Shown here in pieces: positions 38,069-62,885 of a DNA stretch of 64,000 bases. Below the pieces are notes generated by a model. That model saw nothing but the letters and a program-made list of their open reading frames with translations, was not told the origin of the DNA and searched no databases. The translations under genes were made by a program, and so were the position numbers. The stretch's first letter is position 1; the number at the start of each line of letters is the position of its first letter. The stretch is from an uncultured Gammaproteobacteria bacterium (GTDB taxonomy: Bacteria > Patescibacteriota > Microgenomatia > Levybacterales > UBA12049), in NCBI GenBank assembly GCA_965230895.1, contig OZ246394.1:377316-441315 (forward strand). Reading direction: 5' to 3'.

Positions 38069-39151
38069 CTATAAAGAGGTTTTAAATGCGTTGAGGCTTG
38101 ATGAGGATGAATCTATTCTCCAATCGGCTTCTTTTATTAAATTAAACCAAATAACCTCATTTACCCTTGGAAAAGCGGTATGAATCGAATAGAACATATC
38201 ATTTACCCAAGCTTCTTTATTGCCCCCTTGTTCGGAAGAAGCAATCTCGGCAATTATTATGGGCTTATCATATTGAGCAGCAATATATTGATAGGTTGGC
38301 TGAAAGAGTGCACTAAAAGACCTCCAGCCCCCATAACTACGTGTTGTTCCGAAGTTAAAGCCATCAATACCTATAACATCAACTACATCGCTTCCTGGAT
38401 AATATCCATTTATTTCACTAGGATTTTCTGTTATATTCACGCACCACATCCATTGCACATTCGTAACTCCTTCTTGCTGGAAAACTGTATGTATATGACG
38501 GTAAGCTGCAATATATTCTTCAGGCCTCTTTCCCCACGGATACCAATCACCATTCATTTCATGCCCAAAGCGCAATGTGACAGGACTGCCGTATTGCTTT
38601 ATGGACTGGGCAAATTGTCTTATATATGTATCATGCGTTCCTTGGGAAATTTCTTTAAGGTAATCAACAGCTTGAGATGAGCCTTGTTCAGGGTTCCAGG
38701 GCTCCCAGGCCAGTTGTATTTTTTTCCTGCTTTGTTTACTGTATGTAAGTTGAGTAAGGTTAAAACCTTTATTATTTTGATTCCCAAATTGTTTAAAAAT
38801 AGAAAGTGTTGTTATATTTGTATCTAATTGTTTTTCTAAAGAAGTAACTGTATTTTGGTTATTTGCGTAGTCATCAACTACAACACCAAATAGTAGTGTA
38901 TTATTTTTCGGAACTACTGCTTGTATTGTGGGAGTCGGAGTCACAACTGTAATAGGTTTTGGTTTTGCAGTAGGAGTTGGTGTAATCTCTTGAAATCGAG
39001 TTGCTGTAGTTTTTTGACTGGCAGCAAAGGCTGGTTGTGTTGTTTTAGATTGTGATTTAAAAAAGAATGCAGTGAGCAAGGTACTACTTAAGACGATGAG
39101 AAGGAGCGTTATCATTGTTATATTTTTCTTAGAGAACTTAGTAAATTTCAT
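38069..39151 (-). CDS. Membrane-anchored clan GH-A (GH26-like) glycoside hydrolase, paralog of the C-terminal domain of the upstream fusion
   Basis: N-terminal TM; …LRFGHEMNGDWYPWG…, …YYPGSDVVDVIGIDGFN…, …IIIAEIAS…. Confidence 0.7.
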   Translation of the reverse strand: MKFTKFSKKNITMITLLLIVLSSTLLTAFFFKSQSKTTQPAFAASQKTTATRFQEITPTPTAKPKPITVVTPTPTIQAVVPKNNTLLFGVVVDDYANNQNTVTSLEKQLDTNITTLSIFKQFGNQNNKGFNLTQLTYSKQSRKKIQLAWEPWNPEQGSSQAVDYLKEISQGTHDTYIRQFAQSIKQYGSPVTLRFGHEMNGDWYPWGKRPEEYIAAYRHIHTVFQQEGVTNVQWMWCVNITENPSEINGYYPGSDVVDVIGIDGFNFGTTRSYGGWRSFSALFQPTYQYIAAQYDKPIIIAEIASSEQGGNKEAWVNDMFYSIHTAFPRVNEVIWFNLIKEADWRIDSSSSSLNAFKTSL

Positions 39152-42141: not shown

Positions 42142-42732
42142 TTATTTTTCGTTAGAAAGTTCTATCTTTACTAATGCAGCTTTTACAATATATTGCTTGT
42201 TCGAGAACGTTTCATCTGATGTAACAAGAGTCAAAATAGGTGTTTTTGTTGGTGCAAAAACATTTGTATCTGTTGTTTTTGCCAATCTTGAAGAAGTTAC
42301 TTTATATGTTGCTTTTTGACCGTTACCATAGACTACAATTTCAGTATTATTATTAAGTTGTTGGATTCGAGTAAATCCATCAAGTCTATCGTTTGCAAAA
42401 AGTCCAACGTTTCCTTCTTTATCATTGACCAAGCTTGTGCCTTCAGCAAAGTTGGCAACATGTGGAAGAAGCTCCCAAGTACCATCTCTTAATGGTACTG
42501 AAAATACTGGAAGGTCAATTTCTACAGAAGAGATAACGATTCGTTCAGGAGTGAAAGCTGATAATGTCTTAACAGGAGTAACTGTTGGTGTCTTTGATGC
42601 AAATGGCGTTGCTGTCAATTCTTGAGAATTAGCTACAGTAGATGACACACCAGTACCAAGCGCACCAAGTTGCGCGATACTAGCAAAAGCCGCCAAAACA
42701 AAAATAGTTGTATAAACACTTACTTTCTTCAT
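42142..42732 (-). CDS. Sortase-fold paralog with all three catalytic residues substituted (degenerate / pseudo-sortase)
   Basis: Aligns along its length with the sortase at 30688-31308, but GLFGHAQ→GLFANDR (His→Asn), TLITCDG→TLVTSDE (Cys→Ser), VRAEL→VKAAL (Arg→Lys). Confidence 0.7.
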   Translation of the reverse strand: MKKVSVYTTIFVLAAFASIAQLGALGTGVSSTVANSQELTATPFASKTPTVTPVKTLSAFTPERIVISSVEIDLPVFSVPLRDGTWELLPHVANFAEGTSLVNDKEGNVGLFANDRLDGFTRIQQLNNNTEIVVYGNGQKATYKVTSSRLAKTTDTNVFAPTKTPILTLVTSDETFSNKQYIVKAALVKIELSNEK

Positions 42733-42745
42733 ATCGTTAATTGAC

Positions 42746-42931
42746 TTATTTAGCTCTATTAACTAAATATCGACTGATTTGACCTGCTAAGATAACAAGC
42801 CATACGACATTAAGTACTATAAAACCTGCAAGTACAATCGGATTACTTAAGTCAGCAAAGAATGCTCCTGCTGCTGAAGTAGCCGGTAATACCGCTGCGC
42901 CTAATACTTGTCCTTTTCCGTAATCTGTCAT
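42746..42931 (-). CDS. 61-aa mini-protein, paralog of 31314-31493 (MTDYGKGQVLGAAVLPATSAAG-TM-ISRYLVNRAK)
   Basis: Same architecture and invariant LPATSAAG; same position between GT2 and sortase homolog. Confidence 0.5.
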   Translation of the reverse strand: MTDYGKGQVLGAAVLPATSAAGAFFADLSNPIVLAGFIVLNVVWLVILAGQISRYLVNRAK

Positions 42932-42946
42932 AGCTTTCTCCTTTCG

Positions 42947-44209
42947 TTAGTTTTTTGTACCCCACTTTGTTGAGAATCCTGCCTTATTGAAGGCTGCGAG
43001 TCCCCAGTTATATGGAGCATTGAATAATGATATTCTTGTTGCAATTGGCTTAAAGACTTTGTTGTATACGATAAATAAGTATGATCCGAGCAAGATAAGA
43101 CTTAACAAGTTACTGTAAATAAGTTCTGGAAGAACGGTTAACTTCATTAACCAATCTCTCTTATCACTATCTTCATATAAAGATAATGAAACGACATTAA
43201 AGATGAATGCTACAAGGAAGTTGAATAATGAAAGAGCGAATAATATAAGTACTGTTTCTGGATTACTTGTTTCAGTTCGTACAAAAAAGAATGACAACAC
43301 AATCAATCCAAAAAGACTGATGAACAACATATGTCCGATAAGATCTTGGTAAATAACATCAAATTTCTTCCAGAATTCACCCAACACATGGAGTCCACCA
43401 CTTACCCATCGAACACGCTGTTTCCAGAGTGCTTCGATTGATTCAGGAACTGTTGTCCATGCAATTGCTTTTTGAGCAATCTTTACATTCCAACCTTCAC
43501 TCTTCAATCGTGCTGTAATATCATAGTCTTCAATCAAGTGGCCTTTTGTAAAACCATTAATTTCTTTAACTGCTGCTGTTCGAAAAGCTGTTAACATGCC
43601 ATGCATTACAAGTGGTCCTTTTAAGAAACCATTGTCAGCAATCTTTGTGATATTAAAGTTATGGTATTCAAGTGCTTGCAATCGAGTTAAGAAGTTTTTG
43701 TTCTTATTAATAACTCGTACTTCAGAACAGACGGCACCGACTGTATCGTCAGAATACAATGTCGCAACCATTTGTGGAACTGTGTTCTTAGTAATGATCA
43801 CATCATCATCGAAAGTGAAGATAACATCTGGAACATGCTTGAGACTCAAGACATATTCAATACCATGATTTAAGGCCGCTGCTTTTAACTCATTTTTAGG
43901 AGTTCGCAAATAAGCCATATTATTGTGTTCGTTTGCAAGAGCTTTGATTTTGTTAAGTGTCTTAAGATTTTTTTCAGTTTCTGGAGTACAATCATCAATG
44001 ACAACAAGAATTGCTTCAGGATGCCAATCAAGAATAGACTTAATTAGGTTATAGGTCATATCAGTTGGAGTATGAGTTGGTACCAGAATTGCAGGAAGTT
44101 TACTCTGAATAAGCTTCTCACTCATCAAGATTATTTCCTTTTTAGGAGCGAAAAAGTTCACGGATTCTTCCGCGATTCGTTTGAATGTATTTGTATTTTT
44201 TCTCTTCAT
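42947..44209 (-). CDS. Processive family-2 glycosyltransferase, paralog of 31535-32833
   Basis: …AILVVIDDCTPE…, …FTFDDDVI…, QxxRW …WKQRVRWVSGGL…; C-terminal TM helices. Confidence 0.8.
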   Translation of the reverse strand: MKRKNTNTFKRIAEESVNFFAPKKEIILMSEKLIQSKLPAILVPTHTPTDMTYNLIKSILDWHPEAILVVIDDCTPETEKNLKTLNKIKALANEHNNMAYLRTPKNELKAAALNHGIEYVLSLKHVPDVIFTFDDDVIITKNTVPQMVATLYSDDTVGAVCSEVRVINKNKNFLTRLQALEYHNFNITKIADNGFLKGPLVMHGMLTAFRTAAVKEINGFTKGHLIEDYDITARLKSEGWNVKIAQKAIAWTTVPESIEALWKQRVRWVSGGLHVLGEFWKKFDVIYQDLIGHMLFISLFGLIVLSFFFVRTETSNPETVLILFALSLFNFLVAFIFNVVSLSLYEDSDKRDWLMKLTVLPELIYSNLLSLILLGSYLFIVYNKVFKPIATRISLFNAPYNWGLAAFNKAGFSTKWGTKN

Positions 44210-50614: not shown

Positions 50615-53254
50615 TTACTTTTTCGTCTGTAAGTTTTTAGATGTCCAGAGGTTTGGTAAATCGTTATTGTAGAGTGCAGTTCCGAACCAAGCCCAATTCT
50701 GTGTATAATAATTCTTAGAATCTTCCCAATAACTTCCATCCTTATCTTCGTACAACTTGTTCAATACTTGCTTGTCATATACTTCTTTTGCAGCAGCTTT
50801 ATCAGTAACAACAAAGTTTGCCAAATTTGACGCATATGCACTTGCTGATTCATAGTCTTCCCATGGTTTTCCATCATGTGTATACGCTACACTGATTCGT
50901 TGATTGTTTTTCCATTCCTTGCGGATGAAATCATTCTTTGAGAGATATGCCTGCGCACGAGGTTCTTTGAACCATTGATAATCAAGAGCAATTCTCCAAG
51001 GAGTTCTAAATGCATCAAAGCCATATTCTGTTGAGTCCAAACCTTTTTCTGGAGATTTAATAATTCTTCCATTCGCATCAACTGCACACCAATTTGGAGC
51101 GAGCCCTGCAGATGATTCTTTATCCAGATCGCTATCAGTACATGCATTCAGCACTTCATACGATGTGTCTACGAGATCCATCCAATCATGTTTTGTATCA
51201 ATTTCTGCAAAGATTCGGTAACTACTTGGTGCAAGATATGATGGATTGATGATCGCTGCATTCTTTGCCTTAGCCCAGTTACCTGCGACGAGATATGGCT
51301 TACCTCTGACAACTTTCACTTCGTTGTCCCAAATTGCTTGCATAATCGTTCGACCATCGATAATATAGCCGGGATTGTTCCATCGCTTTCCAGCAAAAGC
51401 GAGTGCCAGAGCGATATCTTCATCTGCATCAGTTGCTGAACTTCGGTCAACCACACCCATGGTTCCATCGGCTTTCTTTCCCCACTTCCATGCAATAAGA
51501 TTGTTCTCTTGTTGCATGTTACGTTTGGTGAATCCCCATGCTTTATCAAAGGTTTGCTTATCGTTCATCCAGACTGCTCGAAGCATTGTGTATGATTGCG
51601 CTTCGGATGTTGTTAAGTTATTCGCTGGATCAACAGCATTTCCATCTTTCTTGATAAATGTACTTTTATATGTTTCCCATGTCGAGACAAGAATTCTTCG
51701 AGAGTTCTTTACAGCCCAGATCTGAACATACCAACCATCTCCTGCGAAACTCGTAATCGGATTGGACTGAGCCAAAGCACTTCCGGTCATTGGGATTTCA
51801 CCTGTACCCAAGTCACCACCGATAAGCGGTGTAAACAAGACATAATCAATATTATTGTAGTCATTCTTCAAAATCTTTTCTTTAATGTCTTTATCACCAT
51901 CAACTTTCCAATAATATTCTGCATTTGCGAAATTGTTGTTATTTCGATAGTTCAAATCGAGGTATGCATAATTATCAATTGCATAAAAAGCATTTGGATT
52001 TTGTCGACTCAAGATCCAATTGACCGCTTCGATCTGCGCATTTGTTTCATTTGAGGTATAGATATTAAATTTCCCTGAGCGGACATTGTTTGAATAATTG
52101 AAGACTAAGACACCCATATAAATGATAAATGCCATAATTGGGAAAATTGCATAAATCTGTAATGGCCAGAACCTCATCCGGGCAAAGAAGTGATAGATTC
52201 TATAAAGAACGTATGACGTGGTGAGTGCTACTAACGGAACCAAGGGAATGATATAGAATTCAAGCACCAATCCTCCACGAAGTAAGAAAGCCCAGTAAGA
52301 AACAGCAAGTCCAGCAATAATTCGTGCCGCAACACTTCGAATAGCCAAGAGGAGCGTGATAAGAGTACTGATTGCCCCAACAATCATGAATGATGGATCA
52401 TCATTTTTCCAGTTCCCTGTCATCTCCCAGAAACTCGAATCAGGATTAAGAATACTGACATTTCCCCGTCCCCCTTGGAATTGCAATGTTCCCAAAAGAC
52501 TTACGTGCTCATGTTGGCCACCCAGAAGCGTTCCTGCCGGAAAGAATTCACCTTTAAACATACTGAAGATGAAATAAAGCGAGATAACGACACCTGCGAC
52601 AGCAATCCATTTGATTGTACCGAATATTCTATTTATTTTATGCAATTGTGAATAAACCAGTGCGGCCATGAACGGCAGGAAGAAAATCGCACTTTCTTTA
52701 CTAAGGACAGAAATACCAAATGTCACCGCACTGGCGATAATCCAGCGAAGTCGTTGCTTACTAAAGAGTACAAAAGCAACTGACAAGAGCAGCCAAAATA
52801 CCATGATATTGTCCAGAAGTACACGTCGCTGGAAATAAATTGCCAAAGGTGAAAGTGAAAACATCAGCACAGCAAACGAACCAACCATCTTAGAATTTGT
52901 GATCTTCTTTCCTATGAAATACAGCAGCAATGCTGATCCAATGTGTAGCAAGAGCATGAGTACGCGGCCTGAGTTAATGGCAAACCCAAAAGTAAATAAG
53001 CCACCTGTAAGCTTTATCCATAGTGCAATAAGCATCCAGCCAACTGGAGCATGATCGTACCAATAGGTATACGGAGCTAATTTGCCATCATTGATGATCG
53101 CCCAGGCTTGTGCCATATATGTTCCCTCATCAGATTCATAATATGGATAACCAAGCATGTTATAACCATGAGCAATTGCCGCAATCGCCAGCAAACCAAA
53201 TACAAGAACGTATTCCATCTTATTACTGTTAAAAAATTCTTTAATCTTTTTCAT
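50615..53254 (-). CDS. GT-C-fold membrane glycosyltransferase (PMT/ArnT-like, polyprenyl-phosphate-sugar dependent) fused to a C-terminal GH8 (BcsZ-like endoglucanase) domain
   Basis: N-terminal ~12 TM with …YYESDEGTY… first-loop acidic motif; C-terminal GH8 signature …SSATDADEDIALALAFAGKRW…. Confidence 0.8.
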   Translation of the reverse strand: MKKIKEFFNSNKMEYVLVFGLLAIAAIAHGYNMLGYPYYESDEGTYMAQAWAIINDGKLAPYTYWYDHAPVGWMLIALWIKLTGGLFTFGFAINSGRVLMLLLHIGSALLLYFIGKKITNSKMVGSFAVLMFSLSPLAIYFQRRVLLDNIMVFWLLLSVAFVLFSKQRLRWIIASAVTFGISVLSKESAIFFLPFMAALVYSQLHKINRIFGTIKWIAVAGVVISLYFIFSMFKGEFFPAGTLLGGQHEHVSLLGTLQFQGGRGNVSILNPDSSFWEMTGNWKNDDPSFMIVGAISTLITLLLAIRSVAARIIAGLAVSYWAFLLRGGLVLEFYIIPLVPLVALTTSYVLYRIYHFFARMRFWPLQIYAIFPIMAFIIYMGVLVFNYSNNVRSGKFNIYTSNETNAQIEAVNWILSRQNPNAFYAIDNYAYLDLNYRNNNNFANAEYYWKVDGDKDIKEKILKNDYNNIDYVLFTPLIGGDLGTGEIPMTGSALAQSNPITSFAGDGWYVQIWAVKNSRRILVSTWETYKSTFIKKDGNAVDPANNLTTSEAQSYTMLRAVWMNDKQTFDKAWGFTKRNMQQENNLIAWKWGKKADGTMGVVDRSSATDADEDIALALAFAGKRWNNPGYIIDGRTIMQAIWDNEVKVVRGKPYLVAGNWAKAKNAAIINPSYLAPSSYRIFAEIDTKHDWMDLVDTSYEVLNACTDSDLDKESSAGLAPNWCAVDANGRIIKSPEKGLDSTEYGFDAFRTPWRIALDYQWFKEPRAQAYLSKNDFIRKEWKNNQRISVAYTHDGKPWEDYESASAYASNLANFVVTDKAAAKEVYDKQVLNKLYEDKDGSYWEDSKNYYTQNWAWFGTALYNNDLPNLWTSKNLQTKK

Positions 53255-53258
53255 ATTT

Positions 53259-55484
53259 TTATCTGTTCACCGTGAAATATCTTGCATTCACCTTTGCTGG
53301 TGAAGGCATCGGTTTTTCTGGTCGGTGCGCATTCAAATGCAATGTTTTTTCCCAACTGTCTTGACCCACAGCCAATCGATAAATCGCACGCATCGCGCTA
53401 AAGCCCAAAATAATCTGGAACGGATAGAATACATAGAGAACTTTTAAAGGAATCCAAAATGGATATTTCAGGTTATAACCCTTTGTAAATTCAAATAATC
53501 CGATATTGTATGCAACCAATTGCAGAATCAACAGAAGCAATGGCACAATCGTAATCATGGCAAAAAGTACTGGAAGATCCAGAACAAATGCCATAAATAT
53601 TGATACAGGCAACATCATGAAGAAGAATGCCTGCAACTGTGGAACGAGCAAAATATATGCAGCCAGGAATCGCTGTGATGCCTTTGGAAGATCAAGCCAT
53701 TCACCTTTCATAAAGATTTGGATAAACCCTTGATTCCATCGAGTTCGTTGCTTAATGAAACTTTCAAGACTATGTGGAGTTTCTTCCTGAGTGGTATGTC
53801 GTTCATCATACACAACACCAATTCTTGCTCCACGAATACTCATACGGATACCAATATCTGCATCTTCTGTAAGACAATTTTCATCCCATCCACCAATCTT
53901 ATTAAGCAGATTTCTCTTAAAGAAAACTGTATTTCCACCCAATGGGATAATTCCTTGTTTTGCGAAATAATGCAACGATGACTTAAACCAGAAGAAGTAT
54001 TCCAACACATTAAGCGCTGAGAACCATTTTGATCGGAAGTTCATCAATTGGACTCCTGACTGTAATACATCAAATCCTCGCAACACCATCTCTGTATTAA
54101 CCAGATTATAAATTCCTCGACTTGGTTGGTCTTCTGCGTCAAAGACTGTGACAATATCTTTTGTTGCATGTCTCAAACCGATATTCAAACTGTGTGGCTT
54201 GTTGATTGGCATATCACTAAAGATAAGTAATTTAACATTTGGTTTATTTAAACGGGCAATTGTTTGCTCTGCTTTTGCACGAGTCCTGTGATCATCAGAT
54301 CGAACAATAACGAGTAATTCTTTCAAATGCTCAGGATAATCAATCGCTGCAATTGCACGAATAGTATCACCAATAACACGCTCTTCATGTCGGACAGGAA
54401 GAAGCGCTGTGAAAGAATATTTGGGCTTAAGGTATTTCTCTGGCGGCTTTTCTTTTTGGATTCTATCGACATCTTCCCAACCATAAATCATGAGGTAAAG
54501 ACTAAAAATACTTTGCCAAATCATCAGGACAGACAGCGTGACAATCGCCATTGAAACCATAGTCTGTGTACTAATCATTCCTGCATCACGTGCTCCGAAT
54601 AATACAAGTGCGGCTAAATTCCCGAATGCAAATGCGGTAATTGCGATAAATCCAGCCACGAGAATCATACCGACATGCGCCAAAAACGGAAAACGAATAA
54701 GGAAAGAATTCGTCACAAATTCGATAATATCTTGTTTTCTGAGCTTAGAATTCCCGAAAACCCTATCGGTAAATTGTATAGGAACTTCCTTGATGCGCGC
54801 ATTACTTTTAATGGCTTTATGGAGCAAATCAATCTGGAATGCATAGCCTTTCGACATGAGCTTGTTAAGATTGATCCTCTTAAGAAGTGAGGTACGAATT
54901 GCTCTATAACCACTTGTACAATCTTTTACCTTGCCTAGGCCTGCTACATGACGCGCAAAGATGTTTCCCCATTGGCTATTAAGCTTACGAAGTAACGGCC
55001 AATTACCCGGGATTGAGCCTCCATCAACATACCGTGAACCTATGACGAAGTCACTTCCCTTTTGTATCTCATAAACAAAGAATGAAATCATGGCTGGATC
55101 ATGAGACAGATCAGCATCCATCTCGAACACTATGTCTGCATGAAGGTAGCGCATAGCATACCTAAAACCTCGTATATAAGCATTCCCGAGGCCTTGCTTT
55201 CTTCCTCTGAGTAGATAAATATTTGTATACTTTCTAGCCAGCTTTGTTACTATATTTGCTGTACCATCAGGTGACCCATCATCTACGACAAGGATTGAAA
55301 GTTTGGCATTGTGGAGATATCTGATTTGAGCTTGGATTTCGGTGATAAGCTGTTCAATATTATCCTTTTCGTTATATGTAGGTACGACAATAACCACGTG
55401 ATCTTTCTGCAGATCCGGGTTAATTGGCTGGGTTCTATAAAACCGCTGATATAAATTAGACTGTTTATTCCGTGCTCGAATCAT
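53259..55484 (-). CDS. Dual-GT2 fusion: N-terminal DPM1/ArnC-like polyprenyl-phosphate glycosyltransferase + TM segment + processive QxxRW GT2 synthase
   Basis: …VVIVVPTYNEKDNI…VVDDGSPDGT…EMDADLSHDP…; second domain …LLPVRHEE…VFDAEDQP…QRTRWNQGF…; TM blocks between and after. Confidence 0.8.
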   Translation of the reverse strand: MIRARNKQSNLYQRFYRTQPINPDLQKDHVVIVVPTYNEKDNIEQLITEIQAQIRYLHNAKLSILVVDDGSPDGTANIVTKLARKYTNIYLLRGRKQGLGNAYIRGFRYAMRYLHADIVFEMDADLSHDPAMISFFVYEIQKGSDFVIGSRYVDGGSIPGNWPLLRKLNSQWGNIFARHVAGLGKVKDCTSGYRAIRTSLLKRINLNKLMSKGYAFQIDLLHKAIKSNARIKEVPIQFTDRVFGNSKLRKQDIIEFVTNSFLIRFPFLAHVGMILVAGFIAITAFAFGNLAALVLFGARDAGMISTQTMVSMAIVTLSVLMIWQSIFSLYLMIYGWEDVDRIQKEKPPEKYLKPKYSFTALLPVRHEERVIGDTIRAIAAIDYPEHLKELLVIVRSDDHRTRAKAEQTIARLNKPNVKLLIFSDMPINKPHSLNIGLRHATKDIVTVFDAEDQPSRGIYNLVNTEMVLRGFDVLQSGVQLMNFRSKWFSALNVLEYFFWFKSSLHYFAKQGIIPLGGNTVFFKRNLLNKIGGWDENCLTEDADIGIRMSIRGARIGVVYDERHTTQEETPHSLESFIKQRTRWNQGFIQIFMKGEWLDLPKASQRFLAAYILLVPQLQAFFFMMLPVSIFMAFVLDLPVLFAMITIVPLLLLILQLVAYNIGLFEFTKGYNLKYPFWIPLKVLYVFYPFQIILGFSAMRAIYRLAVGQDSWEKTLHLNAHRPEKPMPSPAKVNARYFTVNR

Positions 55485-55797
55485 CGTACATTACGGGCAG
55501 TAAGTATGGGGCAGAATTGATGAGCTTAATTGTATAGTTTAATACTATAAGTCAACAAAGGTTGAGTATATTATAGATGTACGCATATGTCAAGCTAAGC
55601 TATCCTCAATGACAATCACTCTCTGTGAGAAAATGTAATTTATCTAATTGACACTCAAACGAATAATTGATATACATGAAGTCTGCCACGGTAATAAAAA
55701 CAACGCAAAAGGATTTACTGCCCCTTTTTACTATAAGTTTTAAAATAGGTTAAATCTACAGTACTATTTACTTTAGCTATATCTACTAAGTAGGTAC

Positions 55798-55826
55798 TTG
55801 ACATTTACTTAAATATCCTATAATAT
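55798..55826 (+). promoter_or_regulatory. Candidate sigma70 promoter TTGACA-N17-TAATAT for the giant GT gene in the 390-bp AT-rich divergent intergenic region
   Basis: TTGACA 55798-55803, TAATAT 55821-55826, ~50 nt upstream of ATG 55879. Confidence 0.4.
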
Positions 55827-55878
55827 ACTGATTAATTCAATATTATGGGATATATCCTGTACTAAAGAAGAACGAATT

Positions 55879-58800
55879 ATGCAAACGAATCAACAACTTA
55901 TAAGTGTCGTAGTACCAGTTTATAATGAAATTGGTATCATTATGCAATTCAATGAGCAATTGCTTTTGACGCTTAACAACTCCAATCAGCCTTACGAAGT
56001 TATCTACGTTGATGACAATTCTACAGATGGAACATTTGAATGGCTCCAAAGTATCGCAAACGATACTATTAAAGTAATCCGAAAAATAGGCACAAAAGGA
56101 AAAGCGTATTCTCTTATGCAAGGGTTTGAAGTTGCTCAAGGAGAAATTCTTGCAATGATTGATGGAGACTTGCAATACCCTCCAGCAAAGATTCCTGAGA
56201 TGACTCAAGCGTTACAAAATGCTGACATTGTAGTAGCAAATAGAAAAGACTATAAGGACTCAAAAATGAGAAAACTTTTAAGCCGAGGTTTTAGAAATGT
56301 TTTTGGAAAAATGCTCTTTGGTCTAAACACGGATATCCAATCAGGTCTTAAAGTCTTTAAAAAAGAAGTCTATGAGACAGTGAAGTTCCAACCAGTATCA
56401 CCTTGGACATTTGACTTAGAATTTCTGCATCGAGCAAAGCAAGCTGGTTATACATTAAAAAATACAGAGATTGTATTTGCGCCGCGACGAAATGGCCAAT
56501 CAAAGATGAATGTGGTCAAGCAGTCATATGAAATTGGAGCAAATGCGTTGAATATCAAAATGAAGCCAGTCACATACTTCCCAGTCGAACCGGAAAAAGG
56601 GACAATGCGTGGTGCTGGAGTGAAAGCAAAGAATAAAAAGTATGTGACACACACAACCCTTCCGTCTGCGCTTTCAGCGATTGAAACATTTACGTTCCCA
56701 CAAAAGGTATTCTTTATCGGAACGCCAATTCTTTTACTCTTAGCGTATATCTTAATTCCTTTACAAGCAGCGCGTGTAACTGTTGGTGTATTGAGTATTC
56801 TCTACTTCATTGATGCGATCTTCAATATCTATGTCGTTGGAAAAAGTTTGAGCAAGAAAAACGAAATTGATGTTTCAGAAGCAGAACTTGCAGAAATCAA
56901 TGAATCTGAATTACCAGTCTATACAATTCTTTGTCCTTTATATAGAGAAGCACACGTTGTACCACAGTTTTTGGAAGGTATTTCAAAGATTGATTGGCCA
57001 AAAGAAAAGCTTGATGTGATGTTTCTTCTTGAAGAAGACGATACAGAAACGATTGCGGAATTCGAAAAGATGAATTTACCATTCTATGCTCGAACTGTTA
57101 TCGTCCCTGATTCACAACCAAAGACAAAACCAAAAGCATGTAACTATGGTCTTTCATATGCAAAGGGTGAATACTTGGTTATTTTCGATGCGGAAGATGT
57201 ACCAGATCCATTACAGTTGAAGGTTGCATACCTTGGGTTTAAGAAAGCACCAAGCAATGTAAAATGTTTGCAAGCTAAGTTGAGTTATTACAACTCACGA
57301 TACAACTTGCTTACTCGATTCTTTACAGCTGAATATGCATTGTGGTTCGATGTTACATTGCCTGGTTTGCAATCTCTTAATTCTGCACTTCCACTCGGAG
57401 GTACAAGTAACCATTTCTTGACTGAAAACTTGCGAGAGCTTCAAGGTTGGGATCCATTTAACGTTACTGAAGATGCTGACTTGGGTGTCCGACTTTTTCA
57501 ACGAGGGTATCGTACAGCTATCATTAACAGTACAACATATGAAGAAGCTACGAGTGTCCGAAAAGTATGGTTGAAGCAACGATCACGATGGATCAAAGGA
57601 TATATGCAAACATACTTGGTTCACATGCGAAACCTTCCAGGATTCGTTAAGCAAGTAGGTTTGTGGCACAACTTCATCTTCCAACTTACAGTTGGTGGAA
57701 AGATCTTGTTCGTCCTTTTGAATCCGTTCATGTGGGTTATCACTGCACTTTATTTCTTAGCTAACCCTGTCTTTGGCCCAATCATGGAAGCGATCTATCG
57801 CCCACCTGTTTCATATATCGCGGTATTCTCATGGATCTTTGGTAACTTCATGTTCTTATATTGTTACATGATCGCGGTTGGTAAACGAAAAGACTGGGAT
57901 CTTGCAAAATATGTCCTTTTGATTCCTTTGTACTGGGTCATGATGAGTACAGCTGCCATGATCGCGCTTTACCAATTGATCTTAAAACCCCACTATTGGG
58001 AAAAGACGTTGCATGGATTCCATCTTGGTCGAAAAGATAGTAAAGCAACTGAATCAGCACCGATGCAGGCGCCAAGACCAGCAATTCAGCCAGCATATGT
58101 ACCGGTTGCTGAACCTACAGTAAAGCCTAGTGCGAAATCTGCGGCATCTTTCACAATGCCAAATATTTCATTACCAAGTATTACTTTGCCTAAATTTACA
58201 GGTTTCTATGCGAAATTCTTGCAAGTATTACCTATCCTCGTTCTCTTGAACCTTGATTTAGCTTTGGCTCATGCATTCTTGTCACCAGAAGAAGCACAAA
58301 CATATCTCGTGCTTTCACTTATTGGTAAAGCAGCTTTTGTCATAAGTCAATTCGGTTCAACATTCATTGCAGGAGTTCTTTCTCGAGGTAAATCTGCGAC
58401 AAACCATTTCTTTAATTTGATCTTCTTTACCTTCCTCTTTAACTGGATTGGTTATGTTGTCTTTGGACTTGAAGGCCAATACTTCATCCCGGCAATGTTT
58501 GGTAATAGCCTTGATGGAATCATTGCTTACATGCCATTCTATATGTTTGCATTGCTTTGTTTCGCAGTTGCAAACCGATTCAGTGCCTTCCATGCACAGA
58601 AAAAGAACTATGCTTTCATAGGTATTTCACTCGCAACAATCTTGGCATTCGTTCCATTCATCTTAGTAAACAATGAAACAATCTCTGATTACGTCCGAAC
58701 ATTTGCTTATCTTGGATCAATCAATTTGTTCTTCGTAGTTATCATGCATTTGAGTAATCCATACGTTCGAGTTATGGAAAACAACCTTGCAAGTTTCATC

Positions 58801-60015
58801 GCAGTCTTCGATAAATCAAAAACAAAAAAAGTCTGGAAAGACAATGGTATGAAGATCCTTATCTTCAATTGGAGAGATACAAAACATATTTATGCTGGCG
58901 GTGCTGAAGTATATATCAATGAACTTGCAAAACGATGGGTAAAAAACGGTAATAAAGTAACACTTTTTAGTGGAAATGATAATAGAAATCTTTTCTACGA
59001 GAACGTCAACGGTATTGAAGTCTACCGACGTGGTGGAACATACACAGTATATTTCTTTGCGGTAATGTATTACCTTCTTAAGTTCCGAGGTAAGTACGAC
59101 GTTATCATTGATTGCGAAAATGGTATTCCATTCTTTATGCCTCTCTTTGCAAAAGAACAGGTTATCTTGCTTGTCCATCACGTTCATCAAGAAATCTTCC
59201 GAAAGTTTCTTAAGTTCCCGATGAGTACTGTTGCAGAATTCCTTGAAGGCAAAGTAATGCCGTTTATTTATCAAAATAAAAACGTTGTTACAGTATCTGC
59301 ATCTTCACAAAGTGAAATCTTTAATCTTGGATTTACAAATTCAGGGAACATCGCAATTATTCCAAATGGTGTTGATGAAACACTCTATGTTGATTATCCA
59401 AAAACAGATCATCCTTCATATATTTATCTTGGCCGATTGAAGGAATATAAAAATATTGATGTAGCCATCAAAGCTTTTGCGAAAGTTTTGAAAATACATA
59501 AGAATGCGACATTATCAATTGTTGGAACTGGAGAAAGTTACTATGAATTGCGAGGATTAGTTGAGAGACTTGGTGTTTCAAATGCAGTTACATTCCATGG
59601 TCGTGTATCAGAGAAAGAAAAAGCACGACTCCTTTCCCAAAGCTGGGCAGCGATACAACCTTCACAAATGGAAGGTTGGGGTATCACAGTTATTGAAGCA
59701 AATGCTGCTGGGACACCAGTTATCGCATCTCGAGTAAATGGTTTGCAAGATTCAGTTATCGATAATCAAACAGGACTTCTCGTAGAAGCTGGTGACGTTG
59801 CATCATTTGCAATCGCGATGAGAAAGCTTGCTGATAATGACTTAGTTCGAGTATCACTTTCAAATGAAGCAAGAAAATGGGCTCAGAACTTCAATTGGGA
59901 TAAAAGTGCTGAAGATTTCTATACATTAATTGGTCGAAATTTTGCACAAGGAACTATCAGTCCAGCATATACAAATGTTGTATTGAATACTGCTGAGAAA
60001 GGATCTACAAACTAA
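55879..60015 (+). CDS. 1378-aa triple-glycosyltransferase fusion: DPM1-like GT2 + processive QxxRW GT2 + polytopic membrane region + C-terminal GT4 (group-1) glycosyltransferase
   Basis: …ISVVVPVYNE…VDDNSTDGT…IDGDLQYPP…; …LCPLYRE…IFDAEDVPDP…QRSRWIKGY…; ~10 TM helices; GT4 …KILIFNWRD…GGAEVY… and EX7E …EGWGITVIEANAAGTPVIA…. Confidence 0.85.
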   Translation: MQTNQQLISVVVPVYNEIGIIMQFNEQLLLTLNNSNQPYEVIYVDDNSTDGTFEWLQSIANDTIKVIRKIGTKGKAYSLMQGFEVAQGEILAMIDGDLQYPPAKIPEMTQALQNADIVVANRKDYKDSKMRKLLSRGFRNVFGKMLFGLNTDIQSGLKVFKKEVYETVKFQPVSPWTFDLEFLHRAKQAGYTLKNTEIVFAPRRNGQSKMNVVKQSYEIGANALNIKMKPVTYFPVEPEKGTMRGAGVKAKNKKYVTHTTLPSALSAIETFTFPQKVFFIGTPILLLLAYILIPLQAARVTVGVLSILYFIDAIFNIYVVGKSLSKKNEIDVSEAELAEINESELPVYTILCPLYREAHVVPQFLEGISKIDWPKEKLDVMFLLEEDDTETIAEFEKMNLPFYARTVIVPDSQPKTKPKACNYGLSYAKGEYLVIFDAEDVPDPLQLKVAYLGFKKAPSNVKCLQAKLSYYNSRYNLLTRFFTAEYALWFDVTLPGLQSLNSALPLGGTSNHFLTENLRELQGWDPFNVTEDADLGVRLFQRGYRTAIINSTTYEEATSVRKVWLKQRSRWIKGYMQTYLVHMRNLPGFVKQVGLWHNFIFQLTVGGKILFVLLNPFMWVITALYFLANPVFGPIMEAIYRPPVSYIAVFSWIFGNFMFLYCYMIAVGKRKDWDLAKYVLLIPLYWVMMSTAAMIALYQLILKPHYWEKTLHGFHLGRKDSKATESAPMQAPRPAIQPAYVPVAEPTVKPSAKSAASFTMPNISLPSITLPKFTGFYAKFLQVLPILVLLNLDLALAHAFLSPEEAQTYLVLSLIGKAAFVISQFGSTFIAGVLSRGKSATNHFFNLIFFTFLFNWIGYVVFGLEGQYFIPAMFGNSLDGIIAYMPFYMFALLCFAVANRFSAFHAQKKNYAFIGISLATILAFVPFILVNNETISDYVRTFAYLGSINLFFVVIMHLSNPYVRVMENNLASFIAVFDKSKTKKVWKDNGMKILIFNWRDTKHIYAGGAEVYINELAKRWVKNGNKVTLFSGNDNRNLFYENVNGIEVYRRGGTYTVYFFAVMYYLLKFRGKYDVIIDCENGIPFFMPLFAKEQVILLVHHVHQEIFRKFLKFPMSTVAEFLEGKVMPFIYQNKNVVTVSASSQSEIFNLGFTNSGNIAIIPNGVDETLYVDYPKTDHPSYIYLGRLKEYKNIDVAIKAFAKVLKIHKNATLSIVGTGESYYELRGLVERLGVSNAVTFHGRVSEKEKARLLSQSWAAIQPSQMEGWGITVIEANAAGTPVIASRVNGLQDSVIDNQTGLLVEAGDVASFAIAMRKLADNDLVRVSLSNEARKWAQNFNWDKSAEDFYTLIGRNFAQGTISPAYTNVVLNTAEKGSTN

Positions 60016-60914
60016 TGAAGCCAGTAACAGTATCAGTTGGAATTCCAGCATTTAATGAAGGCAAAAATATTCAACGCTTGCTTTTATCGGTTCTTGCACA
60101 AAAAGAAAATGGTATAGTTCTCAAAGAAGTATTCGTCATGTCAGACGGCAGTAGTGATGACACAGCAAAGAAAGTAAAAGCGCTGAAGGATAAACGAATC
60201 AAATTCTTTGACGATGGAAAGCGTTTGGGAAAATCCGCTCGGATGGATCAGCTCTTCCGAAAAGTTTCAGGCGATGTCCTCATGCTTATGGATGCAGATA
60301 TTGTGATTGATGATCGTTTACTATTTTCAAAAGTAGTTCGTCGAGGGAAGCTTGAGAAAGCAGGTATTGCTGGAGTAAATGTACAACCTTTGAAATCAGA
60401 AGTGTTCTTTGAAGAGATTATCAAAACTGGTGTACTCATCATGAAAGACATCGCAAAGAACTGGAATGCGGGAAGAAATTACTTATCATACAAAGGTGCA
60501 TTTTTAGCGCTTGATGGCAGTTTCGCACGATCAATTCATATCCCAGCAAGTATCGTAAACAATGACCCGTACCTTTATTTCGCAGCTGTTGAGAAAGGTT
60601 TTAAACCTTCATACATTACAAGTTGTGAAGTCTTTTATCGCTCCCCTATGACATTGCATGACCATATAAAACAATCTTCACGATTCCAAAGTTCACGTGA
60701 AGAGCTTTCAAAACATTTCAAGCTTGATTGGGACAAAGAATACACGATGCCAGTTGCAATCGTTATGAAAAGTATCTTAAAATCAATTGGTACCCGCCCT
60801 TTCCATTTTGCTCTTTATGGTGCCGTTAATGTCATTTCTAAGGTCAAAAGACAAACGAAACTTAAAAGTACGTGGAGCATTGCAAACTCTACAAAAGGGA
60901 AAATTAGTATATGA
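60015..60914 (+). CDS. Family-2 glycosyltransferase (start overlaps the upstream stop, TAATG)
   Basis: …VSVGIPAFNEGKNI…, …VMSDGSSDDT…, …MDADIV…. Confidence 0.7.
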   Translation: MKPVTVSVGIPAFNEGKNIQRLLLSVLAQKENGIVLKEVFVMSDGSSDDTAKKVKALKDKRIKFFDDGKRLGKSARMDQLFRKVSGDVLMLMDADIVIDDRLLFSKVVRRGKLEKAGIAGVNVQPLKSEVFFEEIIKTGVLIMKDIAKNWNAGRNYLSYKGAFLALDGSFARSIHIPASIVNNDPYLYFAAVEKGFKPSYITSCEVFYRSPMTLHDHIKQSSRFQSSREELSKHFKLDWDKEYTMPVAIVMKSILKSIGTRPFHFALYGAVNVISKVKRQTKLKSTWSIANSTKGKISI

Positions 60915-62002
60915 GCAGAGATAAATACGAAAGCCTTCCAATTCTCCACTTTGCAGAACAGATTAAAAAAAAGCATGTTAAAAAATCCCTCAAATGTATT
61001 ATTTTTGGTAACTTTGGTGCACTAAATTTAGGCGATGAAGCAATATTGGCAGGAGAAATCACGGAGTTACAAAAGATTCCTAATCTCAGTATTACTGTGA
61101 TTGGACGTTTCCCCAAAGAAGTTCATAAACTCCATAAGGTGCATGCTCTTTCAATGTACGATCTCTACAAAGTCCGTCGCGAAATTAGAAAGTCTGATTT
61201 CGTTATCGTCGGTGGAGGCGGATTAATCAATAAAGTTGAGCGTAGTATCAATGGCTTTCTTTTCCAACTCTATATGATTTTCACCTTTTTCTTTCTCCCA
61301 CGATTTTTCAAAAAGCGATTGTATGTGACTGGCATTGGAATCTACGATAATGCAAATCCTCTTATCGTGAATCTCGTGCTTCCATTCTTGAAAGGTGCAA
61401 CCCTTTTGACAGTTCGTGATGCTCATTCGCATGAATTCTTAAAACACAAAAATGTTCATGCAGGCTTGTACAAAGATAATAGTTTCCTCATGGAACAGTT
61501 AAACAAAGAAGATGTCCTCAAGCATGATCTTTTCAAAAAACATTATCGAAAAGATCGCATGAATATCGGAATCTCGCTTGTTAAACCTGATAGCAAAAAA
61601 GATGAAAAACGATTAATGGAAGAAGTGAAAAAGTTTATTGGCGAGTATCGAGAGAAAGCTGATTTTTGGCTTTATGCAACCGATGCCAACCCTTCATATG
61701 TAAATGATCTGATCATTGGCACAAATTTGATAAATGACGTCCAACGAGAATTTGGAAGTGGAGTTACGTTCCATACAGTCCCGACAAATCTCTCACCGAA
61801 AGTATATTTCTCGTCATTTAAGCTCATGAACTTTATGATCGCTATGCGATTTCATGCAGCTGTTTTTGCATACAGAAATAAAGTGGCTTTTGCAGGCATC
61901 CCATATGATAAGAAATGTACAAGCTTTATAACCTCAATTGGCAAGAAGCCAATCAACCTCAAAAGCCTCACTCATAGTGAGATTAGCAAAACCGTCTTAT
62001 AG
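60911..62002 (+). CDS. Polysaccharide pyruvyl transferase (CsaB/WcaK-like)
   Basis: …CIIFGNFGALNLGDEAILAGE… and …FVIVGGGGLIN… signatures of the PS_pyruv_trans family; 4-bp overlap with upstream gene. Confidence 0.7.
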   Translation: MSRDKYESLPILHFAEQIKKKHVKKSLKCIIFGNFGALNLGDEAILAGEITELQKIPNLSITVIGRFPKEVHKLHKVHALSMYDLYKVRREIRKSDFVIVGGGGLINKVERSINGFLFQLYMIFTFFFLPRFFKKRLYVTGIGIYDNANPLIVNLVLPFLKGATLLTVRDAHSHEFLKHKNVHAGLYKDNSFLMEQLNKEDVLKHDLFKKHYRKDRMNIGISLVKPDSKKDEKRLMEEVKKFIGEYREKADFWLYATDANPSYVNDLIIGTNLINDVQREFGSGVTFHTVPTNLSPKVYFSSFKLMNFMIAMRFHAAVFAYRNKVAFAGIPYDKKCTSFITSIGKKPINLKSLTHSEISKTVL

Positions 62003-62069: not shown

Positions 62070-62885
62070 ATGAAGAAAACACTTTTTACAGCACTTACAA
62101 AAACCCGTCAAGCAGTTTATAAAACACTTGCCTCTTTTGATAAAAATGTTACCAAGCAAAGCAATCCAATCTTTGTCCTTTCCTACCACAGTATTGCAAA
62201 TGACAGTTGGCGCTTTAGTGTTTCAGAGAAAGCACTAAAAGAGCAAATCGAATATTTGCAAGAACATTTCACTATCGTCACACTCAAAGATTTACAAAAT
62301 CATATCTCTGGCAAAAAGATGATTACCAGACCATCAGTCGTTTTAACATTTGATGATGGATATAAAGATATTTTGCAATGGAAAGAGTATTTCGCAAAAC
62401 GAAATATCACTCCAGCATTGTTCATCCTTTCAAATACAAAAAATCCTAACTGGAAAGAGCTCGGAACAAAGAGAGAATTCCTTACTCCAAGTGATATAAA
62501 GTCACTTCTTAAATTAGACTGGGAAATTGGCAGTCACAGTGCTACACATGCTAACCTCGCAACACTAAACGATAAAGAATTACAAAAAGAAATTGTCGAT
62601 GCAAAAGCTGATTTAGAAAAATCCATTGGACAAAAGGTTAATTATTTTGCATATCCAAGAGGTAAATATGATGAAAATGTAGTACGCTATATAAAGGAAG
62701 CAAAGTACACGATGGCCCTAACCATGGACGATGGATTTATCCAGGAAGGCATGGACATGTTGAGAATACCAAGAGTTGGCATAGATAACACCCATACCTT
62801 TGAAGAATTTAAGGCAACGTTCTCGCCTTCAGTTGTACGCTTCCGAAAAATAATTAAAGAAAGTCCTGCCGGTAAATATCTATGA
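62070..62885 (+). CDS. Polysaccharide deacetylase (NodB-homology, CE4)
   Basis: …VVLTFDDGYKD…, …WEIGSHSATHANL…, …YFAYPRGKYD…. Confidence 0.8.
   Translation: MKKTLFTALTKTRQAVYKTLASFDKNVTKQSNPIFVLSYHSIANDSWRFSVSEKALKEQIEYLQEHFTIVTLKDLQNHISGKKMITRPSVVLTFDDGYKDILQWKEYFAKRNITPALFILSNTKNPNWKELGTKREFLTPSDIKSLLKLDWEIGSHSATHANLATLNDKELQKEIVDAKADLEKSIGQKVNYFAYPRGKYDENVVRYIKEAKYTMALTMDDGFIQEGMDMLRIPRVGIDNTHTFEEFKATFSPSVVRFRKIIKESPAGKYL

Follow-up and report, generated by a model that had tools for sequence, protein, structure and literature searches.

Fused polyprenyl-phosphate sugar synthase-like and glycan synthase-like domains, and their GT-C partners, at a Patescibacteria locus

Introduction

What might a bacterium build, and by what route, with glycosyltransferases that are joined end to end in single membrane proteins? 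The question is raised by a 64,000-nucleotide stretch of contig OZ246394.1 (assembly GCA_965230895.1, positions 377,316 to 441,315 of the forward strand), hereafter the window, which was deposited under an uncultured gammaproteobacterium and is placed by GTDB in the Patescibacteriota (Levybacterales). Bacteria of the candidate phyla radiation (CPR) are episymbionts whose surface chemistry is essentially unknown. Two adjacent, divergently oriented genes of the window, here called A and B, each fuse a domain resembling dolichyl-phosphate mannose synthase (DPMS) to a second glycosyltransferase family 2 (GT2) domain resembling those of polysaccharide synthases. An initial annotation, made from the DNA alone, proposed that A and B, together with neighbouring enzymes of the GT-C type, form a self-contained machinery that could make lipid-linked sugar donors, polymerise a glycan and decorate it outside the membrane. 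Here we follow up this proposal computationally and describe a pairing of synthase-like GT2 domains with GT-C proteins that extends well beyond this genome.

Results

Gene A (53259-55484, minus strand) encodes 741 amino acids (aa), comprising a DPMS-like polyprenyl-phosphate sugar synthase domain, two transmembrane (TM) helices and a GT2 domain of the PgaC/BcsA fold. Gene B (55879-60015, plus strand) encodes 1378 aa, in which a DPMS-like domain and a synthase-like GT2 are followed by a membrane block related to one half of a MOP flippase and by a family 4 glycosyltransferase (GT4). Both are intact, divergently oriented open reading frames (ORFs), with exactly the coordinates first assigned to them, and contigs L001 and L002, which stem from separate sequencing runs, carry identical copies. 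The two proteins align colinearly over ~740 aa (25% identity, E 5e-45), which agrees with the suggestion that their N-terminal halves are paralogous; judged by this alignment, A and B are old paralogues. Pfam scans matched A to PF00535 (aa 32-203), PF13641 (aa 358-585) and PF13632 (aa 444-648), and B to PF00535 (aa 9-166), PF13641 (aa 348-574), Glyco_transf_4 (aa 1007-1167) and Glycos_transf_1 (aa 1176-1334); the second GT2 region, of Glyco_tranf_2_3/Glyco_trans_2_3 type, spans aa 348-627 in B and aa 358-648 in A.

Among the best 120 homologues of each protein, those of A are mostly ~700 aa long (43-92% identity) and those of B are 1104-1645 aa long (46-100% identity). There are hundreds of two-domain A homologues of ~700 aa, one of them an orthologue of equal length and 92% identity, and dozens of full-length three-domain B homologues at 50-74% identity. 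The source groups named for them are Levybacteria, Magasanikbacteria, Pacebacteria, Parcubacteria and "Patescibacteria group", which identifies the window as DNA of a CPR bacterium, probably a Levybacteria-like one. We give practically no credence to the idea that the fusions are artefacts, produced by mis-assembly or by a frameshift or read-through that merged separate genes: nothing spoke in its favour, the same ORFs occur in two independent assemblies, the 92%-identical A orthologue is as long as A, and the catalytic residues of every domain stay invariant in hundreds of full-length homologues. A frameshift or mis-assembly origin was ruled out on the strength of the two assemblies and the full-length homologues, and no frameshift of the kind that the initial annotation had warned of splits either gene.

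The N-terminal domain of A is a DPM1/DPMS-type GT-A domain with interface helices (aa 26-264, 54693..55409, minus strand), and its best solved relative is Pyrococcus furiosus DPMS (PfDPMS, PDB 5mlz; phmmer 1.1e-36). The corresponding domain of B (aa 7-235, 55897..56583, plus strand) also matches 5mlz best (1.2e-21), followed by GtrB (1.2e-13) and ArnC (7e-13). For both N-termini PfDPMS ranks first among solved structures, with ArnC and GtrB next, in line with the DPM1/ArnC-like character originally attributed to them, and AglJ is among the NCBIfam matches of both. In A, amphipathic interface helices and a TM anchor follow the catalytic domain, whose nearest folds are members of the polyprenyl-phosphate GT2 family.

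In PfDPMS, D91 and Q93 contact the metal and the diphosphate, R117, R131 and S135 position dolichyl-phosphate, and the acceptor loop (A-loop) includes R202 and K208 (PMC5526996). The segment 89-DADLQH-94 of that enzyme aligns with D123-A-D125-L-S127-H128 in A and with the DxDxQ motif D95-G-D97-L-Q99 in B, and these motifs are kept in both families. Position by position, PfDPMS D89/D91 correspond to D123/D125 of A and D95/D97 of B, Q93 to S127 and Q99, R117 to R151 and R122, R131 to R166 and R131, S135 to S170 and S135, R202 to R241 and R203, and K208 to K247 and K209. With E39 and D69 added, the key residues of A are invariant or at least 90% conserved in an alignment of 72 homologues; those of B, to which E17 and D46 belong, are at least 97% conserved across 100 homologues, except S135, which lies below 97%. 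The position of PfDPMS Q93 is an invariant Ser throughout the A family, as in eukaryotic DPM1, and F177/K178 of PfDPMS are replaced by Tyr/Ala in A. A place for both N-terminal domains in the polyprenyl-phosphate GT2 group (DPM1/DPMS, GtrB, ArnC and GacI) is supported by these sequence and predicted fold features, with the domain of B, by its motif, being of the more divergent DxDxQ type. Because the domain of A is closest to Dol-P-mannose synthase, its donor sugar is probably a hexose such as mannose.

The second domain of A, a synthase-like GT2 (aa 345-716, 53337..54452, minus strand) that ends in two TM helices and an amphipathic helix, is preceded by TM1 and TM2 (aa 267-337, 54474..54686, minus strand). 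Both the structural model, which places these helices at aa 267-300 and 306-337, and hydropathy support the pair, and in the model it would bring the chain back to the cytoplasm. The synthase-like GT2 of B (aa 340-713, 56896..58017, plus strand) likewise has a TM pair ahead of it (aa 274-322, 56698-56844). The catalytic motifs are D398, D449-A-E-D452, T539-E-D541, Q579-R-T-R-W583 and W711-E-K-T-L-H716 in A, and D388, D437-A-E-D440, T530-E-D532, Q567-R-S-R-W571 and W707-E-K-T-L-H712 in B. The QRTRWNQG (A, aa 579-586) and QRSRWIKG (B, aa 567-574) strings first reported for these domains are present, and the D, DxD, TED, QRxRW and WxKTxH motifs are invariant in both families (72 A and 100 B homologues aligned), so that neither second domain lacks the DxD or QxxRW residues. 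Gating-loop motifs of related enzymes are FxVTxK in BcsA and WGTR in hyaluronan synthases and chitin synthases; the invariant WxKTxH occupies the gating-loop-equivalent place, an equivalence judged by position only.

The best NCBIfam model for the second domains is PgaC_IcaA, with 120 bits for A and 92 bits for B against a curated cut-off of 422; the CelA model gives 63 and 55 bits against 699. On these scores the second domains are relatives of the PgaC and CelA equivalogs and not members of them. By model and hydropathy, two TM helices stand before each second domain and two after it, followed by an amphipathic third. Since a 431-aa stand-alone Streptomyces orthologue begins at the second N-terminal helix (TM2 of A), the core cassette has ~3 TM helices, one N-terminal and two C-terminal, plus amphipathic helices. 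BcsA has six TM helices in its glycan channel. The ~3-TM core would be too small for a BcsA-type channel on its own, and a partner or oligomer would be needed. The DxD, TED and QxxRW motifs bear out the GT2 part of the initial description as a processive GT2; that the domain is processive and self-exporting, and that the locus polymerises and decorates a glycan, is what we infer, with a core of only ~3 TM helices.

The GT-C partner of A is encoded by gene C (50615-53254, minus strand; 879 aa), which starts 4 nt downstream of the stop codon of A. It had been taken for a plain GT-C enzyme. The GT-C part stands (aa 1-400, 52055-53254, PMT/ArnT-like), with a Pfam PMT match at 2.8e-7 (30.8 bits against a cut-off of 22.7) and homologues that match PMT and PMT_2 strongly, but it is fused to a GH8 endoglucanase domain (aa 519-863, 50666-51700; Pfam 1.4e-48). 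The D42-E43 (DE) motif after the first TM helix is 94-99% conserved in 77 sequences, and R143, D148 and N149 are 96-100% conserved; on account of these residues the GT-C partner looks catalytically active. Hydropathy and positive-inside analysis of the GT-C family gave no clean TM count, and by analogy with ArnT and PMT the GH8 domain would lie outside the membrane. The GH8 domain is closest to Clostridium thermocellum CelA (4.5e-28), then to BcsZ (3e-21), and reaches 138 bits with the curated BcsZ model against a cut-off of 299. Its proton donor E551 aligns with CelA E95, the position mutated in 1kwf, the ATDADEDIA box (aa 607-615) and the D747 region are also kept, and the catalytic residues are intact.

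To survey A-type loci, one genome per species was scanned with the A alignment and 80 loci were searched with domain queries; pairing with GT-C was counted over the 72 loci with enough sequence. A GT-C homologue lies directly downstream of the A-type cassette, on the same strand, at 69 of the 72 loci (12/12 in CPR, 38/39 in Chloroflexota and 13/13 in Actinomycetota), against 17 of 72 for a DPMS-like domain. The latter is fused or adjacent at 9/14 loci in CPR, 7/41 in Chloroflexota and 1/13 in Actinomycetota, and GH8 is fused or downstream at 11/11, 8/34 and 1/13, respectively. The C-terminal cassette of A is 45-61% identical across CPR, Chloroflexota (Ktedonobacteria, Anaerolineae, Chloroflexia and Thermomicrobiales), Actinomycetota (Streptomyces, Rubrobacteraceae and Micromonosporaceae) and one acidobacterium. 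The unit conserved across phyla is the pair of synthase-like GT2 and GT-C, to which the DPMS-like fusion and GH8 are accessory.

When the A cassette was searched against 1.84 billion cluster representatives, 1849 clusters were recovered at E<=1e-30, and the cassette forms the C-terminal part of proteins 415-1447 aa long. Pfam scans of 19 representatives revealed, as N-terminal additions, a DPMS-like GT2, GtrA_DPMS_TM with a DPMS-like domain, VWA (some with LysM or Big_7), SH3_3 and FHA. In three-component glycosylation systems GtrA serves as the flippase, and GtrA_DPMS_TM plus a DPMS-like domain is fused to the cassette in three cases (P0283, P0289 and P0301). FHA, SH3_3 and one or two VWA domains, the latter with LysM/Big_7, are found on the cassettes of homologues P0236, P0238, P0239, P0285, P0292-P0307 and L048 (11147-13189), and a weak GAF match lies ahead of the cassette in a Rubrobacteraceae genome. 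The nature of the FHA, GAF, VWA and SH3_3 additions would suggest regulatory or wall-binding add-ons.

Gene B extends beyond its second GT2. The initial annotation placed ~10 TM helices between the GT2 and the GT4; instead, there are the three helices of the GT2, a linker (aa 710-770) and a six-helix half-MOP block. An AlphaFold2 model of aa 590-1378 (mean predicted local distance difference test score, pLDDT, 78.6) shows a disordered, Pro/Ala-rich linker (aa 714-774, 58018..58200, plus strand; pLDDT <50 over aa 710-770) and a block of six membrane helices (aa 775-975, 58201..58803, plus strand; pLDDT >90) homologous to the C-terminal half of Wzx/MOP flippases (Polysacc_synt_3). The GT4 at the end of the 1378-aa protein (aa 990-1345, 58846..59913, plus strand), of the retaining type, is as first described, with Glycos_transf_1 and Glyco_transf_4 profiles, a GT-B fold and the EX7E motif (E1265-E1273). 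As the block has six helices, the GT4 is returned to the cytoplasm, and both GT-A domains and the GT4 of B lie on the same, cytoplasmic side.

Of 100 B homologues, 41 are long (~1570 aa), with ~200 extra aa inserted at B positions 720-744, the site of the linker, and a full MOP domain is found in 41 of the 100. The membrane region of one long relative (P0094) passes the Pfam cut-offs of PF13440 (Polysacc_synt_3, 53.5 bits) and PF01943 (Polysacc_synt, 31.8 bits), and the B block aligns with the C-terminal half of this region at 30% identity (E 2e-34). In tblastn, the block also matches a stand-alone MOP gene of L004, over the 190 residues at its C-terminus. It has six helices against the 12-14, in two lobes, of MOP flippases and was aligned to the C-terminal half only. 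In a fold search with the B fragment the GT4 domain accounted for most matches, so that the search was uninformative on the MOP fold of the block. From these alignments, B appears to carry a conserved half-flippase, a six-helix remnant of Wzx/MOP, and its linker would sit where the N-terminal lobe lies in the longer homologues. The fused GtrA modules and the full MOP domain of long B homologues argue for a lipid-linked sugar that is exported for use outside.

Downstream of B, on the same strand, Pfam and NCBIfam identify a 299-aa GT2 directly after it (60015-60914), a CsaB-like pyruvyl transferase (60911-62002) and a CE4 deacetylase (62070-62885), tightly packed with overlapping stop and start codons. 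An export signal was found in none of the three, using a crude hydropathy threshold and inspection of the N-termini by eye. The CE4 enzyme may act in the cytoplasm like NodB/HfsH rather than on exported polymer like PgaB/IcaB. Next come two multi-TM proteins of ~500-530 aa: TM532, which starts at 62882 on the plus strand and is complete on L001 (13217-14815, 532 aa), and, beyond the window, TM504. Neither matches a Pfam model. Aligned by hhalign with the GT-C family of gene C, TM532 scored a probability of 97.0% (E 1.2e-10) and TM504 one of 96.1% (E 2.9e-9), so that the GT-C enzyme previously placed at the window end (62882-) is confirmed as a remote GT-C homologue. A protein of TM504/TM532 type lies downstream of the B-type cassette at 10 of 10 occurrences in the loci fetched, as the immediately next gene where the GT4 is absent. 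There are two paralogous pairings, in each of which a synthase-like GT2 has a GT-C of its own.

The operon of B ends ~2-4 kb past the window (L001 17017-19399) with genes for a membrane-anchored 331-aa protein that has no Pfam match, a 204-aa protein and a sortase (Pfam 4.9e-22). The 204-aa protein combines a signal peptide with a Thr/Pro-rich stalk and, at the C-terminus, a sortase sorting signal made up of LAPTG, a hydrophobic helix and RKSK. The trio also occurs in L003 and L005, and L049 has the 331-aa protein and the sortase, with no match to the 204-aa protein above the listing threshold. In L004 (14223-15647, 17672-20584), the genes after a B-type gene encode a stand-alone MOP flippase, a PIG-L deacetylase and two Acetyltransf_6 proteins in place of the pyruvyl transferase and CE4, so that the operon varies in its tailoring set.

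The spacer between A and B (55485-55878, 394 bp) had been described as an AT-rich control region with candidate promoters in both directions. Its GC content of 30.5% is at the 1st percentile of 394-bp windows (mean 37.9%), and it holds one strong promoter-like site per strand: TTGACA-17-TATACT on the minus strand (55593..55565, 11/12 match) and TTGACA-17-TAATAT on the plus strand (55798..55826, 10/12 match). The AT-richness and the hexamers in both directions hold up, but two such sites, compared with 3.9 +/- 2.1 in shuffled sequences, are no enrichment, and the promoters remain candidates. In both assemblies, gene callers predicted a 29-aa ORF within the spacer (window 55590-55679, L001 6050-6139, minus strand). 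Rfam and tRNA scans of the window found nothing.

Other glycan genes lie on the minus strand of the window. An 878-aa protein (35387-38023) fuses a synthase-type GT2 (Glyco_trans_2_3 1e-22, a weak Cellulose_synt match, ~6 TM helices) to GH26 (4e-17) and is next to a second GH26 gene (38069-39151), another pairing of synthase and hydrolase. Two paralogues of 776 aa (32913-35243) and 924 aa (39261-42035) have an N-terminal CE4 domain and nearly identical C-terminal tails (...TPTSA.V..VRLQYY.TPNSTF..YIDSVSLS). Within 42142-44209, a 420-aa GT2 (Chitin_synth_2 1.2e-11) with three C-terminal TM helices adjoins a second sortase gene (42142-42732).

Discussion

Our preferred reading, held tentatively and at a little under an even chance, is that the locus encodes a transmembrane glycosylation (decoration) system of the GtrABC/GacIJKL type welded to the synthase of its target glycan, with A and B as multi-enzyme membrane proteins at the core of two paralogous polyprenyl phosphate-dependent envelope-glycan pathways. 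At the cytoplasmic face, the N-terminal domain would move a sugar from an NDP-sugar to polyprenyl phosphate, yielding polyprenyl-P-sugar, a step that is well supported by the conserved residues. The second domain, an inverting GT2 of the PgaC/BcsA fold facing the cytoplasm, would elongate a β-linked glycan at the membrane, and for A the partners suggest a product like a β-1,4-glucan chain. The lipid-linked sugar would then be flipped, by GtrA or a complete Wzx/MOP module in relatives, of which B has only half. Outside, the downstream GT-C (gene C for A, TM532/TM504 for B) would attach the flipped sugar to the glycan made by the second domain, and the GH8 of gene C may trim or release the chain. 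In the case of B, the GT4, the 299-aa GT2, the pyruvyl transferase and CE4 may extend and tailor the lipid-linked unit prior to flipping. The activities, sugars, processivity, flipping and GT-C acceptor of this scheme are as we infer them.

Several known systems share parts of this scheme. The second domains have the fold and all the catalytic motifs of the synthases in PgaC/PgaD-PgaB, IcaA/IcaD-IcaB and BcsA/BcsB-BcsZ, and a BcsZ-like GH8 and a CE4 are among the partners here. They differ in having fewer TM helices, scores far below the cut-offs, a CE4 that lacks an export signal, and a constant GT-C partner, which those systems lack. Pfam and NCBIfam scans of the locus detected no PgaD, BcsB or PilZ; on this gene content it does not appear to be a Bcs-type operon, sharing only the BcsZ-like GH8, fused to GT-C. 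PcManGT, a membrane mannosyltransferase of Pyrobaculum calidifontis (PDB 6yv7), reportedly has a "minimal cellulose-synthase-like fold", but it gave no sequence-level match to the second domain, and the match to BcsA was slightly better. Ppm1 of Mycobacterium tuberculosis (Rv2051c), in which a membrane domain and a polyprenyl-P-mannose synthase are naturally fused, is a precedent for a bacterial Ppm synthase joined to another membrane enzyme domain; its partner is an Lnt-like acyltransferase domain and not a glycan synthase.

Apart from the residue substitutions in A described above (Ser for Q93, Tyr/Ala for F177/K178), the locus differs from the type III DPMS of P. furiosus (5mlz) in that two helices, which lead into a second enzyme, stand in place of the four-helix GtrA-like TM domain (PMC5526996). 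GacI/J/K/L of Streptococcus pyogenes and the lactococcal Wps system bring together a DPMS-like C55-P sugar synthase, a flippase of the Wzx type and GT-C (PMC10821137). Cytoplasmic extender glycosyltransferases are also part of the Wps pathway. Here, however, synthase, flippase remnant, extender GT4 and BcsA-fold GT2 are one polypeptide, a GacJ/WpsB-like activator is not present, one of the two GT-C families is PMT-like and the other has no Pfam model, and the target polymer would come from the fused synthase rather than from an ABC-transporter pathway. GtrA/GtrB/GtrC systems (including CsbB/GtcA/YfhO, which act on teichoic acids) follow the same logic, with a polyprenyl-P sugar synthase, a small flippase of the GtrA type and a GT-C enzyme, and in relatives P0283, P0289 and P0301 GtrA_DPMS_TM is fused to the very same cassette; the window genes themselves lack a GtrA module, and fusion to a synthase-like GT2 is not known in those systems.

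We favour the decoration reading because of the fused GtrA modules, the known single-sugar chemistry of PMT/ArnT-type GT-C enzymes, a DPMS-like domain that is dispensable in cis and the BcsZ-like GH8. The constant GT-C partners, with the conserved DE motif of those of A type, also speak for it. A number of observations weigh against it. A and B miss all curated NCBIfam cut-offs, a Pfam scan of the B TM block at E<=10 found no MOP match, and the window contains no complete flippase. The synthase and GT-C components of a three- or four-component system are present and syntenic, and the flippase is a half-MOP only, with complete GtrA or MOP modules in relatives. Of the machinery proposed in the initial annotation, the polyprenyl-phosphate sugar synthase-like domains, the synthase-like GT2 and the GT-C partners are borne out, and polymerisation and decoration are putative. 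By crude hydropathy, the 299-aa GT2, the pyruvyl transferase and CE4 look cytoplasmic, and so would be unable to act on an extruded polymer. Streptomyces orthologues carry no annotation beyond "glycosyltransferase" and "glycosyltransferase family 39 / ArnT family", and we are aware of no synthase-dependent polymer that a GT-C decorates. A GT2-GT2 fusion would also be explained more simply by a second domain that acts on the product of the first.

That last point leads to a single lipid-primed assembly line, a serious if somewhat unlikely alternative. Polyprenyl-P-sugar from the first domain would prime the second domain (in B also the GT4 and the 299-aa GT2), and the glycan would grow in the cytoplasm on polyprenyl-monophosphate, be deacetylated and pyruvylated there, be flipped by the MOP/GtrA module or a GT2 half-tunnel, and be polymerised or transferred en bloc by the GT-C proteins, as in the lactococcal polysaccharide pellicle pathway (WpsA/B, WpsC-F, WpsG, WpsH/J) or in the AglJ pathway of haloarchaea. 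The fused domains then stand in the order of the reactions, the operon of B maps one-to-one on Wps (initiator, cytoplasmic extenders, Wzx-type module, two GT-C), AglJ is among the NCBIfam matches of both N-terminal domains, and the ~3-TM "half-tunnel" core has near-equal similarity to PcManGT. The lack of export signals in CE4, the pyruvyl transferase and the 299-aa GT2, as judged by the crude threshold, is no less compatible with assembly on a lipid carrier in the cytoplasm than with the decoration of an extruded polymer. However, PMT/PMT_2-type GT-C enzymes are known to transfer single sugars, fused GtrA modules are typical of monosaccharide-P-lipid flipping, many orthologues lack any DPMS-like domain, and the GH8 endoglucanase and gating-loop-like WxKTxH point to a long, synthase-like β-1,4 polymer. 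A further explanation is protein O-glycosylation, in which, as with Ppm1/Pmt of Actinomycetota, the DPMS-like domains and PMT-like GT-C would mannosylate secreted proteins and the synthase-like GT2 would be a mere neighbour. Gene C does match the PMT family and has a PMT-like DE motif, and the 204-aa protein at the end of the B operon, with its Thr/Pro-rich stalk and LAPTG signal beside a sortase, is a candidate target; but GT-C is tied to the synthase cassette (69/72 loci) and not to the DPMS-like domain (17/72), and it is fused to a glycan hydrolase in 11 of 11 CPR cases, which leaves this explanation improbable. We consider it still less probable that the two GT2 domains form a dual-active-site co-polymerase that alternately adds two sugars to one chain and uses no lipid-linked donor, on the model of the chondroitin polymerase K4CP, class II hyaluronan synthase or LARGE. 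Each chain has two GT-A domains, and K4CP and LARGE1 are among the Foldseek matches, but the first domain retains the Arg/Arg/Ser lipid-phosphate triad and the A-loop of DPMS, finds its best sequence and fold matches exclusively among polyprenyl-phosphate transferases and lacks a TED-type catalytic base region, and the constant GT-C partners would be left without a donor. A K4CP-like enzyme was rejected on these grounds.

A bolder reading, which we regard as unlikely, takes the invariant pair of 3-TM BcsA-fold GT2 and GT-C to be a glycan synthase complex of a new class, present in the monoderm Terrabacteria (CPR, Chloroflexota and Actinomycetota). The GT-C would complete the translocation path in place of BcsB/PgaD and would glycosylate or ligate the emerging chain, using lipid-linked sugar made and flipped by the fused modules; in CPR the pathway would come down to two or three polypeptides.

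In the literature, we found no description of this fusion architecture in Patescibacteria, Saccharibacteria or Chloroflexi, no paper on a lipid-sugar synthase (with or without a flippase and GT4) fused to a synthase-fold GT2, and no description of a near-universal coupling of that GT2 to GT-C. A paper on an Actinoplanes exopolysaccharide cluster was considered as a prior description and set aside, as it concerns other genes. The locus combines known kinds of machinery in a new way; it is not a new category, and known glycobiology is not overturned.

Conclusion

In conclusion, the A and B families are large, conserved and uncharacterised, and they define a family pair with a two-model hypothesis. 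The fusions serve as a "Rosetta stone" that ties a lipid-linked-sugar synthase, GtrA/Wzx modules, a synthase-like GT2 and GT-C into one pathway, and the fused flippase modules bear on the old question of how polyprenyl-P-monosaccharides cross the membrane. The pair of GT2 and GT-C also occurs in cultivable, tractable hosts, the Streptomyces violaceusniger group (orthologues WP_044573189 and WP_308280144) and Ktedonobacteria, and the hypothesis is therefore directly testable there. Within 30 kb, the locus and its neighbours comprise at least four GT2 genes of synthase type, three for GT-C and two for sortases; they are probably a large part of how this cell builds its envelope, and they outline an unstudied way to build cell-surface glycans.

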